Shown: positions 19,748-33,065 of the stretch, in pieces
Layout of the letters: each line of letters begins with the position of its first letter
Position numbering within the stretch: position 1 is the stretch's first letter
From: Escherichia phage 55
DNA length: 64,000 bases
Sequence record: OQ599310
Direction: 5' to 3' (one strand)
The notes under the pieces: model-generated
Database searches by the model: none
Told to the model about the DNA's origin: nothing
The model's input: the letters and a program-made list of their open reading frames with translations, nothing else
Program-made: the position numbers and the translations under genes

Positions 19748-20695
19748 ATGTTTAAACGTAAATCTACTGCTGACCTCGCTGCTCAAATGGCTAAACTGAA
19801 CGGTAACAAAGGTTTCTCTTCAGAAGATAAAGGCGAATGGAAGCTGAAGCTAGATGCATCCGGTAATGGTCAAGCGGTAATTCGTTTCTTGCCAGCAAAA
19901 ACTGATGATGCACTACCATTTGCAATTCTTGTTAACCATGGTTTCAAGAAAAATGGTAAATGGTATATTGAAAATTGCTCTTCTACACATGGTGATTATG
20001 ACTCTTGTCCTGTATGTCAGTACATTATTAAAAATGACCTGTACAATACCAACAAAACTGAATATTCTCAACTGAAACGTAAAACTTCTTATTGGGCTAA
20101 TATTCTGGTTGTTAAAGACCCTCAAGCTCCAGATAATGAAGGTAAAGTATTTAAATATCGTTTCGGTAAAAAGATTTGGGACAAAATCAATGCAATGATT
20201 GCAGTTGATACCGAAATGGGTGAAACTCCAGTTGATGTTACTTGTCCGTTTGAAGGTGCTAACTTCGTTCTGAAAGCTAAGCAGGTTTCTGGTTTTAGCA
20301 ACTATGACGAATCTAAATTCTTGGGTCAATCTGAAATTCCTCGTATTAATGACGAAGCATTCCAGAAAGAACTATATGACCAGATGGTAGACCTTACTAC
20401 TTTGACGGCTAAAGACCAGTTCAAATCCTTTGAAAAATTAAATGAATCTTTCGCTAAGGTTCTTGGTACTGCCGCTCTTGGTGGTGCAGCAGCTGCAGCA
20501 GCTTCTGTTGCAGCAGCTGCAGCAGCTTCTGTTGCAGCTGCTGCAGCTTCTGTTGCAGATAAAGTTGCTTCTGACCTTGACGATTTTGATAAAGACATGG
20601 AAGCCTTTAGTTCTGCAAAAACTGAAGACGACTTCATGAGCTCTACCTCATCTTCTGATGACGGCGACCTCGATGACCTGTTAGCTGGTCTATAA
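19748..20695 (+). CDS. 32: gp32 single-stranded DNA-binding protein
   Basis: 315 aa; near-identical to remembered T4 gp32 with an expanded Ala-rich linker; acidic C-terminus ([12 protein letters not shown]). Confidence 0.95.
20486..20554 (+). repeat. in-frame tandem repeat, about 2.9 copies of a 24-bp unit (GCAGCAGCTGCAGCAGCTTCTGTT) encoding AAAAASVA
   Basis: Copies at 20486-20509, 20510-20533 and a 21-bp third copy 20534-20554, inside gene 32. Confidence 0.85.
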
Positions 20696-20701
20696 TAAAT
20701 T

Positions 20702-20719
20702 GGGAGACTTCGGTCTCCC
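20702..20719 (+). terminator. hairpin GGGAGAC-UUCG-GUCUCCC followed by TTTT, after gene 32
   Basis: Perfect 7-bp stem, UUCG loop, T-run. Confidence 0.7.
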
Positions 20720-20751
20720 TTTTGAGTATCTGTAAATTGCCGAAAAAAGTT

Positions 20752-20780
20752 GTTTACTTCTTTCCTAGATGTGTTACTAT
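20752..20780 (+). promoter_or_regulatory. T4-type early promoter (GTTTAC, 17 bp, TGTGTTACTAT)
   Basis: GTTTAC 20752-20757; TACTAT 20775-20780. Confidence 0.55.
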
Positions 20781-20810
20781 AGACCTATCAAAACAAATGA
20801 GGAAATCATA

Positions 20811-21173
20811 ATGGAAACCGGAAAAACGTACATCATCAACCCTGCATTTAAAGCTACCTTCGCTAACGAATGCCCACAAAATGCTGAAATGCTGTCTTTG
20901 ATTGAGCTTCATGGCCCTAGTTTTGTTGTAAAAGACATGAACACAGAGTACGACGATGATAAATGTGTAACACGTGTAACTATGCGAGACGGCACTGAAT
21001 TGGGTTTTGACGGTAAGCCGGGTTCATATTTTGAGCTTTATGACGATGAGTTCAAATACTTCATCGAGGTATCCCCAGAGTCTATTTCTAAACAGTCACT
21101 CATCTTTGAAGTTACTGAAGATAACGCCCGTGATGTGATTGCAGAAATTAAAGAAATTTTTGGAATAAAATAA
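20811..21173 (+). CDS. hypothetical early protein, paralogue A (120 aa)
   Basis: Start moved to ATG 20811 (SD gaggaaatcataATG); shares LIELHGPSFVV and FKYFIE motifs with the next gene. Confidence 0.55.
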   Translation: METGKTYIINPAFKATFANECPQNAEMLSLIELHGPSFVVKDMNTEYDDDKCVTRVTMRDGTELGFDGKPGSYFELYDDEFKYFIEVSPESISKQSLIFEVTEDNARDVIAEIKEIFGIK

Positions 21174-21198
21174 GTACAGCACAAATGAGGAAATCAAA

Positions 21199-21603
21199 AT
21201 GGAAATCGGAAAATCTTATATCATTAGCCCTTTATTTAAAGACGACTTTGTTCAAGAAGCACCACATAATAACGCTAAGATGTTAAAACTGATTGAACTC
21301 CATGGGCCTAGTTTTGTTGTAAACGGAATGGAACCTGATTATGATAGCGATACGTCAAACGTAGTAAGTGTAACTATGGAAGATGGTACTGTATGTTCTG
21401 CCGGTGGTGGAATTGAAACTTATTTTGAGATTTATCCTGACGAGTTTAAATACTTTATTGAGTACTTTACTGAGGTAGATTTAGTAAAGCCTCAACCTAC
21501 TAACGAAGGTATAACTTTAGGTGTAACAAAAATCCATTGTATCGTAGATGAAACCAACGTCGACGAAATCATCAAACTTTTGCAAAAAACTTTTAAAAAG
21601 TAG
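21199..21603 (+). CDS. hypothetical early protein, paralogue B (134 aa)
   Basis: Same RBS context (aaatgaggaaatcaaaATG) and shared motifs with 20811-21173; tandem duplicate. Confidence 0.55.
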   Translation: MEIGKSYIISPLFKDDFVQEAPHNNAKMLKLIELHGPSFVVNGMEPDYDSDTSNVVSVTMEDGTVCSAGGGIETYFEIYPDEFKYFIEYFTEVDLVKPQPTNEGITLGVTKIHCIVDETNVDEIIKLLQKTFKK

Positions 21604-21640
21604 TGTACAATCAGATAGGGCTATGTTATAGTAGCCCTAT
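21604..21640 (+). promoter_or_regulatory. promoter cassette with palindrome (TGTACA ... ATAGGGCTA-tgttatag-TAGCCCTAT)
   Basis: 9-bp inverted repeat 21615-21623/21632-21640 around an A/T-rich core; same family as 266-302. Confidence 0.5.
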
Positions 21641-21665
21641 CAAATCAAAAGTGAAGGAGAATAAA

Positions 21666-21914
21666 ATGAGATTGCAACGACAGAGCATCAAAGATTCTGA
21701 AGTTAGAGGTAAATGGTACTTCAACGTCATTGGTAAAGATGCTGAACTCCTTGAACAAGCTGAAGAAGCTTTACGTGAAATGGGATGGAATGAAGAATGT
21801 GATGGATGTCCGCTCTACGAAGATGGTGAAAGCGCAGGATTCTGGATTCACCATTCTGATGTTGAATCGTTTAAAGCCGATTGGAAAGTTGTTAAGAAAA
21901 ATCTGAGGAAATAA
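21666..21914 (+). CDS. hypothetical early protein (82 aa)
   Basis: Start moved to ATG 21666 (SD aaggagaataaaATG). Confidence 0.45.
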   Translation: MRLQRQSIKDSEVRGKWYFNVIGKDAELLEQAEEALREMGWNEECDGCPLYEDGESAGFWIHHSDVESFKADWKVVKKNLRK

Positions 21915-21916
21915 TT

Positions 21917-22109
21917 ATGATTAACTGTCTATTTTTCCGTTATCTTAGAACTTTGCTTTCAGAAATAGAAAAGAAACAATATCATGAACTTGCGTTTGGA
22001 TGTTCAGCTGTACGATTAAATGAATGCCCAAGAAAACAAATTTTTGTTATTGATTCAAGAATGTTTGAATTCCAATACTATATGATCAAAAAATATCTGA
22101 GGAAACAAT

Positions 22110-22126
<17 letters not shown>
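21917..22126 (+). CDS. hypothetical protein (69 aa)
   Basis: ORF track; SD gaggaaataattATG. Confidence 0.35.
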
Positions 22127-23792
<1,666 letters not shown>

Positions 23793-30680: not shown

Positions 30681-30702
30681 ATGGATAATTGAGGAAATCT
30701 AA

Positions 30703-31001
30703 ATGAAAACATTACTAGAGAATTACATCAAACGGTCTGATGAGTATATTGTTATCTGTCGTGGAATGTCACTTGGCAATTATGACAAAGATGCAGCAAA
30801 GGCACTAGATGAAGCAGGTAAAGCTCTTCGTAAAGCTGCTAAAGAAAAAGGGTTGGATTTGCAACAACTCAAAAGTCATATGATTAAATTTATTTCTTCA
30901 AACGTTAGAAGTACGTCAATTAATAAAAACGTTGCTGAAATTAATAAAGACCGGCGCGAGCATAACATTCGTATTCTTGAAATTTTCTTAGGAATAAAAT
31001 A

Positions 31002-32800: not shown

Positions 32801-32828
32801 AACTCTACCAACAAATGAGGAAATAGAA

Positions 32829-33065
32829 ATGCTAAGTGAAAACCCAATCACAGTACACGAATTTCAGATTAAAGTAAAAGAATTTGCTCAAGCACTCATC
32901 AATAAAGTGTCTGAACGTTTCCAAGATGCAACATTACGAGTTATTCAAGAATCTCCACGTTCTTTTCTCATAATCGTTAATCCTAAAGATGGTGACCAAA
33001 TTACTAATCTTAAATTAGGCAGTGACGGTCTTGTTGAAGCAACTCGAGTATATGGAACACTATAA
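32829..33065 (+). CDS. hypothetical protein (78 aa)
   Basis: ORF track; SD gaggaaatagaaATG. Confidence 0.45.
   Translation: MLSENPITVHEFQIKVKEFAQALINKVSERFQDATLRVIQESPRSFLIIVNPKDGDQITNLKLGSDGLVEATRVYGTL

Follow-up and report, generated by a model that had tools for sequence, protein, structure and literature searches.

Two adjacent Frd.2-family genes in a Mosigvirus phage: anciently diverged copies, one of them probably a shuffled cassette

Does a phage that carries two similar small genes side by side owe them to a duplication in place, or did the two copies come together by another route? The question is raised by a locus of Escherichia phage 55 (sequence record OQ599310), of which we analysed a stretch of 64,000 nucleotides (nt), here called the window. 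The initial annotation, made from the letters alone, had described two adjacent open reading frames (ORFs) as tandem duplicated early genes with a conserved core and diverged ends. Both frames are there, on the + strand, and are referred to below as ORF A and ORF B (lengths in amino acids, aa; pI, isoelectric point):

20811-21173, + strand: ORF A, accessory Frd.2 paralogue with the short-linker C-terminal subtype (120 aa, pI 4.4)
21199-21603, + strand: ORF B, standard Mosigvirus frd.2 orthologue (134 aa, pI 4.5)

We consider it likely that the two are anciently diverged Frd.2 copies and that ORF A is a cassette shuffled in the manner of the promoter early stem-loop (PeSL) cassettes of T-even phages; with low confidence, we suggest that the proteins act as early adaptors or inhibitors.

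Judged by their profile matches, both proteins are full-length members of the Frd.2 family (PF03197 / phrog_622), which is already known and named (Pfam FRD2, T4 frd.2 and a structural paper of 2025). The Pfam model PF03197 (FRD2, 'Bacteriophage FRD2 protein'; curated gathering cut-off 29 bits) scored 78.5 bits with ORF A (model positions 1-95 of 96) and 115 bits with ORF B (model positions 1-96 of 96), reaching to two residues or fewer from the C-terminus in both, and phrog_622 was matched at 1.6e-25 and 6.2e-37, respectively. The one frd.2 of SA79RD matches ORF B at 98.5% identity, and T4 Frd.2 matches it at 39.7% over the full length of ORF B. Aligned with each other by BLASTP, ORF A and ORF B share 52 of 88 residues (59%, aa 1-88, E=5e-32), including the blocks YIIxP, LIELHGPSFVV and DEFKYFIE that had been singled out at the outset. 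The similarity is thus found at the protein level and is not confined to the ribosome-binding site (RBS) and the first residues. No significant BLASTP alignment of the two C-termini was obtained beyond aa 88. ORF A starts at ATG 20811, 8 nt past GAGG at 20799, and ORF B at ATG 21199, with GAGG upstream at 21187. The start given for ORF A by the ORF tool (ATG 20769) was rejected, as it lies inside the promoter -10 region, lacks a Shine-Dalgarno sequence and is used by no orthologue.

In T4 Frd.2, residues 1-88 make up an N-terminal domain with an LSm-like/SH3-like barrel, whose relatives are GoF and MotB.1 and whose nearest neighbours are FeoA-type domains; flexible linkers connect it to C-terminal domains that vary (Kim et al. 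2025, PMC12152347). Our AlphaFold2 (AF2) models and Foldseek results agree with this description. The models and the family alignments place in both proteins a predicted five-stranded FeoA/SH3-like ('LSm-like') barrel of about aa 1-88, a flexible linker of variable length and a strand-helix C-terminal domain of ~25 residues. Mean predicted local distance difference test (pLDDT) values were 88.6 for ORF A (confident) and 80.1 for ORF B (reasonable), and the predicted secondary structure is alike in the two (strand 1, two-helix insert, four strands, linker, C-terminal helix). The barrel of ORF A corresponds to 20811-21074 (aa 1-88) and its C-terminal domain, beyond the linker, to 21096-21170 (aa 96-120). 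In ORF B the barrel corresponds to 21199-21462 (aa 1-88) and the C-terminal domain, which is of the canonical kind (GVTKIHCIVDETNVDEIIKLLQKTFKK), to 21520-21600 (aa 108-134). The linker of ORF B is longer than that of ORF A and is predicted with low confidence (pLDDT below 50 at aa 98-109). Among the 58 viral matches of the ORF A model in BFVD (Foldseek, E<=1e-3) were GoF of phage VR7 (E 1.1e-4) and T4 MotB.1 (P39415, E 5.5e-4), consistent with a fold similarity to the N-terminal domains of these proteins. Hidden Markov models of the whole family and of the barrel alone detected no further Frd.2 paralogue in the window (next best E 0.14). At the barrel/linker border of ORF B, Tandem Repeats Finder (TRF) located a short repeat:

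21451-21474, + strand: 12-nt tandem duplication in ORF B, TACTTTAYTGAG x2, encoding YFIE-YFTE (TRF period 12, 2 copies)

Mosigvirus versions of Frd.2 with 134 aa have this duplication; those of ATK47 and ESCO47, with 130 aa, lack it.

The last ~25 residues, SLIFEVTEDNARDVIAEIKEIFGIK in ORF A and TKIHCIVDETNVDEIIKLLQKTFKK in ORF B, align as one strand-helix element in family alignments of 17 and 50 members, across which V101, N105, I110 and F117 of ORF A are invariant. By these alignments the two C-terminal domains are homologous, yet belong to two old subtypes: a short-linker subtype shared by ORF A, W70_89, S16 gp159.1 and the first CLB_P2 copy, and the canonical T4 type of ORF B. The C-termini have therefore diverged, as first proposed, to the point that BLASTP does not align them, but not to the point of being unrelated. 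Since the barrels are closely related and the C-terminal subtypes differ, the 'conserved core, diverged ends' of the pair corresponds to a domain boundary. Within the family, the core strands and the YFE and EFKYF motifs are conserved, and it is two barrel loops (aa 45-51 and aa 63-72) and the linker that vary most. The barrels of ORF A and ORF B contain 16-17 acidic against 5-8 basic residues; the proteins, at pI 4.4-4.5, have a net charge of about -12.

The divergence between the two genes is old. By the method of Nei and Gojobori, their synonymous divergence (dS) is 1.41 in the barrel and 1.52 over the whole protein, values that are saturated, and the ratio of non-synonymous (dN) to synonymous divergence is 0.22-0.25. 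The dS between ORF B and T4 Frd.2 is about the same (1.58), so a recent duplication in place is not supported. We also compared orthologues across relatives, a check named in the initial annotation. Orthologues of ORF A differ by dS 0.31-0.47 and dN 0.04-0.06 (dN/dS 0.10-0.13), and dN/dS among ORF B orthologues is 0.07-0.29; both copies are kept by purifying selection.

The two domains moreover appear to have different histories, as neighbour-joining trees (vectorised bootstrap) of the barrel and of the C-terminal domain disagree. The barrel of ORF A clusters with Frd.2 of Tequatrovirus T4_ev151 and relatives (bootstrap 90%), which themselves have a canonical C-terminal domain, and at 63% identity it is closer to T4_ev151 Frd.2 than to ORF B. 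Its C-terminal domain clusters with W70_89 (bootstrap 76%), within a group that also holds S16 gp159.1, the first CLB_P2 copy and W70_88 (74%; 33% for the group minus W70_88). A further case is RB51, whose Frd.2 barrel is nearly identical to that of the B-type gene in LF82-16 and Mizar.

The 3.3 kb surrounding the pair are 92-95% identical at the nucleotide level to Mosigvirus genomes, which identifies the source of the window as a T-even phage of this RB69-like genus. On the + strand, the order of genes in the window is 59, 32, ORF A, ORF B, frd.1 (DUF5417), two small ORFs, frd and td, with the following positions:

19748-20695, + strand: gene 32
21666-21914, + strand: frd.1 homologue (DUF5417), neighbour 3' of ORF B (Pfam PF17438, 9.2e-35)
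22348-22935, + strand: frd
22932-23792, + strand: td

This agrees with the order in T4T (32, frd.3, frd.2, frd.1, frd, td), and it is the frd.1 homologue that shows the locus to be the counterpart of 32 - frd.2 - frd.1 - frd - td in T4. Both ORFs thus lie where frd.2 lies in a T4-like genome, between 32 and frd.1/frd and on the same strand.

T4 Frd.2, listed in UniProt as 'Uncharacterized 14.7 kDa protein in frd-Gp32 intergenic region', resembles ORF A and ORF B in family, locus, length class and architecture, and the C-terminal motif of ORF B, GVTKIHCIVDExNVDEIIxLLxKTFKK, is near-identical in it. T4 differs from the window in having one frd.2 copy instead of two and an unrelated frd.3 upstream (hhalign 0.3%). 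Its Frd.2 has an 'NGGWFEV' barrel, to which the 'HGPSFVV' barrels of the window are only about 35-40% identical, and ORF A differs from it further in its short linker and divergent C-terminal domain. We also considered T4 Frd.3 as the remnant of a second Frd.2, on account of a VDxxxIEEII string like that of the C-terminal domain, and rejected it (hhalign probability 0.3%, E 0.21).

Homologues of ORF B were found in 861 phage records, 21 of which also contain an ORF A-type gene (>=80% identity). The two genes are joined in the order A-B, with a contiguous junction, in four records (ATK47 twice, ATK48 and ESh15), and stand in the order B-A in 16 (LH01, twelve LF82 isolates, phiEC1, Mizar and FP43). 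SA79RD and most other Mosigvirus genomes lack the segment at about 20790-21180 of the window, and the extra ~390 base pairs (bp) that the window has over SA79RD are flanked on both sides by a repeated RBS string, CAAATGAGGAAATCA. Close relatives thus differ in the presence and in the order of the gene, with breakpoints in the module that contains this string, as is characteristic of a cassette. In the metagenomic T-even contig L015, the sole frd.2 between 32 and frd.1 is an A-like gene (69% identical) with the short C-terminal domain. We infer that ORF B is the resident Mosigvirus frd.2 and ORF A an accessory cassette. The ORF A orthologue of ATK47 (L004 1621-1983; same region in ATK48) is 98% identical and unannotated in the GenBank/RefSeq records. 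It begins with MEIGKS, as ORF B does, instead of the METGKT of ORF A in the window, which makes small exchanges between the 5' ends of the two copies probable.

Tandem Frd.2 pairs also occur, independently of the window, in Gelderlandvirus S16 (gp159.1/gp159) and in Dhakavirus CLB_P2. These are adjacent at the same locus and in the same order as A-B, the first copy being of the short-linker subtype and the second canonical. The Vequintavirinae phage W70 has at least two adjacent Frd.2-like genes (three places by tblastn) near DNA polymerase. Within each pair of S16, CLB_P2 and W70, the barrels are far more diverged than those of ORF A and ORF B. The Mosigvirus pair is polymorphic, present or absent and in either order.

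The sequences around the two genes suggest how such a cassette could move. Five elements were located between gene 32 and frd.1 (UTR, untranslated region):

20702-20727, + strand: gene 32 intrinsic terminator, with a hairpin at 20702-20719 (7-bp stem, 5 GC pairs) and then the T run TTTTGAGTAT
20742-20780, + strand: putative T4-type early promoter of ORF A and ORF B, with an A-tract at 20742-20749 and -35 GTTTAC at 20752-20757
20784-20810, + strand: 5'-UTR/RBS module 5' of ORF A, CCTATCAAAACAAATGAGGAAATCA, with GAGG at 20799
21174-21198, + strand: A-B junction of 25 nt, including the RBS of ORF B (GAGG 21187)
21604-21650, + strand: PeSL-like composite between ORF B and frd.1, with -35-like TGTACA at 21604-21609, an 11-bp hairpin at 21614-21641 and then CCCTATCAAA

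The frd.2 transcription unit is bounded on its upstream side by the gene 32 terminator, which was picked up in a terminator scan, folds at -13.4 kcal/mol (z -3.45) and has a terminator annotation in SA79RD and ATK47. Just 3' of this terminator, the putative promoter combines its -35 with a 17-nt spacer and a TGn-extended -10 (TACTAT, 20775-20780), so that 20752-20780 fits the T4-type PeSL promoter consensus TTTACW-N17-TAYWAT (PMC4122927). It scored 8/12 in a generic sigma-70 scan, which is under threshold; the region is conserved across seven Mosigvirus loci, with GTTTAC invariant. This promoter probably drives both genes, in keeping with their description as early genes at the outset. The A-B junction contains no hairpin (-0.3 kcal/mol, z +0.9) and no promoter or terminator match in the scan, and ORF A and ORF B should hence form one bicistronic early unit. 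ATK47/ATK48 alone share this form of the junction; the short junction of ESh15 is another one, and in the B-A phages a full promoter/stem-loop module lies between the two genes.

A near-identical RBS context before both ORFs had been pointed out, and a 20-nt string, CAAATGAGGAAATCA[T/A]AATG, is indeed identical 5' of ORF A and ORF B (0.03 chance matches expected at <=3 mismatches). Further copies of the 5'-UTR/RBS module of ORF A stand before the A-type genes of LF82-16/FP43/Mizar and before a small hydrophobic ORF of ESh15; in T4 and L015, the equivalent small ORF is preceded by a shorter, looser RBS module, CCCTATCAAAAC. The identical contexts can thus be ascribed to a dispersed promoter/stem-loop/5'-UTR module instead of a duplication scar. 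Gene conversion was considered as their source and set aside as unneeded, the same string preceding unrelated genes.

The composite between ORF B and frd.1 is a further form of this module. Its hairpin is strong (-18.7 kcal/mol, z -5.6; annotated as a terminator in SA79RD) and encloses a TG-extended -10 (TATAGT, 21627-21632; 9/12 in the promoter scan, with TG), so that initiation and hairpin formation may exclude each other. In LF82-16, FP43, Mizar, ESh15, T4 and L015, the A and B cassettes are bordered by homologous modules; the hairpins are strong (z -4.1 to -5.6), and the repeated unit reads TAG-TGTACA/TATACA...hairpin...CCTATCAAAACAAATGAGGAAATCAAAATG. In this module, a stop codon is followed by a -35-like TGTACA, TATACA or GTTTAC, a hairpin over a TATAGT or TACTAT -10, and CCTATCAAAACAAATGAG(A)GGAAATCAAAATG. 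In the B-A phages the module stands on either side of the A-type gene, in ESh15, T4 and L015 it precedes the small hydrophobic ORF, and a hairpin-less form behind the gene 32 terminator constitutes the putative promoter of ORF A. A query holding the module matched 5-7 places per related genome. On these sequence matches, a PeSL-like module recurs between small early genes in Mosigvirus, in T4 and in an unclassified T-even contig. Individual copies were noted at L001 1934-2000 and 2358-2428, L003 2885-2950 and L015 2674-2740.

The published PeSL cassettes (Arbiol et al. 2010, PMC2839356; Comeau et al. 2014, PMC4122927), which these modules resemble, have a composite early promoter and stem-loop repeated between small non-essential genes, which are gained, lost and reordered between close relatives with breakpoints in the -10-to-ATG stretch. 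Experiments on RB49 and phi1 showed that small genes are gained, lost and excised as circles by way of PeSLs, the crossovers falling between -10 and ATG (PMC2839356), and shuffling of this type has been described for the T4/PST group (PMC4122927). The modules of the window differ in that the stem-loop overlaps the -10 and has no T run. From the resemblance to PeSL cassettes we infer that ORF A is a cassette moved by recombination. Its movement would proceed by homologous recombination within the PeSL-like promoter/stem-loop/5'-UTR modules of this hyperplastic region, the shared module being the probable recombination site, and would account both for the absence of ORF A from most relatives and for the two orders A-B and B-A. 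ORF A and ORF B would then be co-transcribed from the early promoter just 3' of the gene 32 terminator.

As to what the two proteins do, we suggest, with low confidence, that Frd.2 proteins are small acidic early adaptors or inhibitors whose barrel would bind a host or phage macromolecule of gene expression. Target specificity would be set by the loops at aa 45-51 and 63-72 and by the C-terminal domain; a conserved core with variability in two loops and the linker is the pattern expected if the loops set specificity. Two diverged copies would widen the range of targets or host variants. Because of the strong acidity of the proteins and the SH3/Tudor-type character of their nearest folds, a protein partner may be more likely than naked RNA, a preference that we hold with equally low confidence. 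The likeness to FeoA, to the C-terminal SH3-like domains of DtxR-IdeR and to Tudor-like RNA-polymerase-interacting domains (UvrD/PcrA C-terminal domain, CarD) is one of fold class only and not of membership, with identities of 9-15% and no shared motifs or metal ligands.

Several observations weigh against the reading of ORF A and ORF B as old copies, one of them a shuffled cassette, with adaptor or inhibitor functions. The roughly 20 records with ORF A amount to about five independent lineages, 12 of the records being near-identical LF82 isolates. The A-B junction of the window is without the PeSL module, which has been lost there. The trees rest on 104 columns (barrel) and 25 columns (C-terminal domain), neighbour-joining and moderate bootstrap values. 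As to function, a T4 frd.2 amber mutant plates normally (PMC12152347), and the 'Fit' score of T4 frd.2 in CRISPRi-ART is marginal (log2 fold change 0.83, p 0.027, 4 guides; 3.29 for gene 32). The published hypothesis for the superfamily is, moreover, an RNA-related role (PMC12152347).

Had the pair originated through a local tandem duplication of frd.2 that took place recently in this lineage and was followed by fast divergence (neofunctionalisation), this would explain why the genes are adjacent, on the same strand and 25 nt apart, with identical RBS contexts and 59% of the first 88 residues matching, and the two barrels do fall into one broad 'HGPSFVV' clade (64% bootstrap; also W70_89 and P0048) apart from the T4 type. 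However, the saturated dS of 1.4-1.5 equals that between ORF B and T4 Frd.2, the barrel of ORF A is nearer to that of Tequatrovirus T4_ev151, and its C-terminal domain goes with other genera and a Vequintavirinae phage. In addition, the order B-A is found in 16 records against four for A-B, an A-like gene stands alone in L015, and the RBS context is common to unrelated neighbouring genes. We therefore regard such an origin as very improbable and largely refuted already; of the 'tandem duplicated' paralogues, the paralogy and the conserved core stand and the local duplication does not, given dS, cassette behaviour and discordant domain trees. Hardly any credence can be given to the idea that one copy is a decaying, non-functional remnant that is passively carried. 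ORF A is unannotated in ATK47 and ATK48 and missing from most relatives, but both ORFs are intact and have good Shine-Dalgarno sequences, the low dN (0.04-0.06) of ORF A orthologues against their dS (0.31-0.47) gives the dN/dS of 0.10-0.13 noted above, and the ORF A model has the higher confidence (pLDDT 88.6).

Rival views of function also have to be weighed against that of early adaptors or inhibitors. The initial annotation had thought of host-interaction or anti-defence factors. The proteins could be anti-defence or host-range factors in an arms race, with copy A covering a variant defence or target missed by B. This would suit the early-promoter position, the small size and acidity of the proteins, the patchy and reshuffled distribution of ORF A among close relatives and the repeated multiplication of the family (a pair each in S16 and CLB_P2, two or more neighbouring copies in W70, fused double barrels). 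It would also suit the focusing of variability on two surface loops and the linker, and T4 frd.2 is dispensable on laboratory strains like the usual accessory counter-defence genes. It is nevertheless unlikely in our view: PADLOC, which holds defence models only, gave no match, NCBIfam gave one chance-level match (ORF B, E 0.011, 15.2 bits against a 225-bit cut-off), and a literature search found no connection of Frd.2 with defence. Pairwise dN/dS (0.07-0.29) is far under 1, with no sign of overall diversifying selection, and the near-universal B-type frd.2 of T-even phages (861 records) is easier to reconcile with a conserved, housekeeping-like part in takeover than with narrow counter-defence. 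Similarly doubtful is a combination in which the A and B barrels form a hetero-pair or serve as parallel decoys, their hypervariable acidic loops contacting variable host targets, and the family is one of diversifying, PeSL-shuffled takeover or counter-defence adaptors; the fused double-barrel proteins P0099, P0101 and P0105 would then be a 'Rosetta stone' for the pairing of A and B. Direct binding of phage or host mRNAs by LSm-like RNA chaperones or RNA-stability factors has in its favour the barrel of five antiparallel strands, the structural likeness of the ORF A model to GoF and MotB.1, and the post-transcriptional stabilisation of a gene 41 leader reporter RNA by GoF(D25Y) (PMC12152347). 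The basis of that idea is a gain-of-function mutant of GoF; in the same assay, the wild-type GoF and MotB.1 proteins were inactive (PMC12152347). For ORF A and ORF B, likeness to bona fide Sm/Hfq proteins together with RNA binding was not found, the closest folds being SH3/Tudor-type interaction domains and not Sm proteins, and we consider such a role distinctly unlikely. We thus retain early adaptors or inhibitors as the preferred, tentative function.

The GoF/MotB.1/Frd.2 superfamily of Tevenvirinae (PMC12152347) shares with ORF A and ORF B the predicted barrel, flexible linker and variable C-terminal domain; its members are early genes that are non-essential in the laboratory, and the nearest solved structures are FeoA-type SH3-like ones. 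That study covers single T4 genes, without tandem Frd.2 paralogues, the two C-terminal subtypes or the mosaicism of barrel and C-terminal domain, and its functional data concern the GoF gain-of-function mutant alone and not Frd.2. Beyond the papers cited, our search of the literature on Frd2, or on MotB.1/GoF after 2022, found nothing further.

As an instance of phage gene shuffling the A/B pair is neat but ordinary, and it will not surprise a T4 specialist. Few T-even early genes that lack an assigned function are as conserved as Frd.2, and frd.2 was the sole gene of unknown function scored 'Fit' in the T4 CRISPRi-ART screen, marginally. With one, the other or both Frd.2 types in either order, the phages compared here (window/ATK47, LF82/FP43, SA79RD and the L015 type) form a natural panel with which the roles of barrel and C-terminal domain, and the redundancy of the copies, can be separated. 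In RB69-like phages, the locus further provides a compact, naturally occurring case of cassettes shuffled at promoter/stem-loop repeats.

Beyond the tandem genes, a search of 1.84 billion representative proteins returned only 52 Frd.2 clusters at E<=1e-3. Three of these (P0099, P0101 and P0105) consist of proteins of 225-254 aa with two tandem Frd.2-like barrels, an acidic linker and one strand-helix C-terminal domain, and structural matches of 225 aa were found in BFVD in Cronobacter phage Pet-CM3-4 and Pectobacterium phage PM2. In such double-barrel proteins, two Frd.2 barrels may be able to act together.

Looser copies of the CAAATGAGGAAATCA RBS string precede other genes of the window (30686-30705 and 32812-32831), and partial copies of the -10/CCTATCAAA element are located at 290-307, 3370-3387 and 3691-3708. 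These copies suggest more cassette borders of this kind. The small hydrophobic ORF between frd.2 and frd.1 in ESh15, T4 and L015 is a mini-ORF of 22 codons, M(L/F)APYIMAAVMLVCLYLLIKAC, that is absent from the window and unannotated in the records concerned (L005 2464-2531, L003 2947-3014 and L015 2736-2803); its RBS is the shared module in ESh15 and the shorter version in T4 and L015.

The gap between frd.1 and frd is filled in the window by two small overlapping ORFs (21917-22126 and 22110-22355), and the small-ORF content of this slot varies between relatives. The 69-aa ORF had no match in Pfam and PHROG scans, and the 81-aa ORF matched phrog_3183 (unknown function). Finally, gene 32 of the window has an in-frame expansion of 45 nt (15 aa) in an alanine-rich unit at 20482-20558. 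The unit, AAAAA(A)SV, is present three times in gp32 of the window and once in SA79RD, LF82-16, ATK47 and T4, so that gp32 is 315 aa long, against about 300 otherwise. The repeated stretch separates the single-stranded DNA-binding core from the acidic C-terminal tail (TRF periods 21 and 24; alignment).

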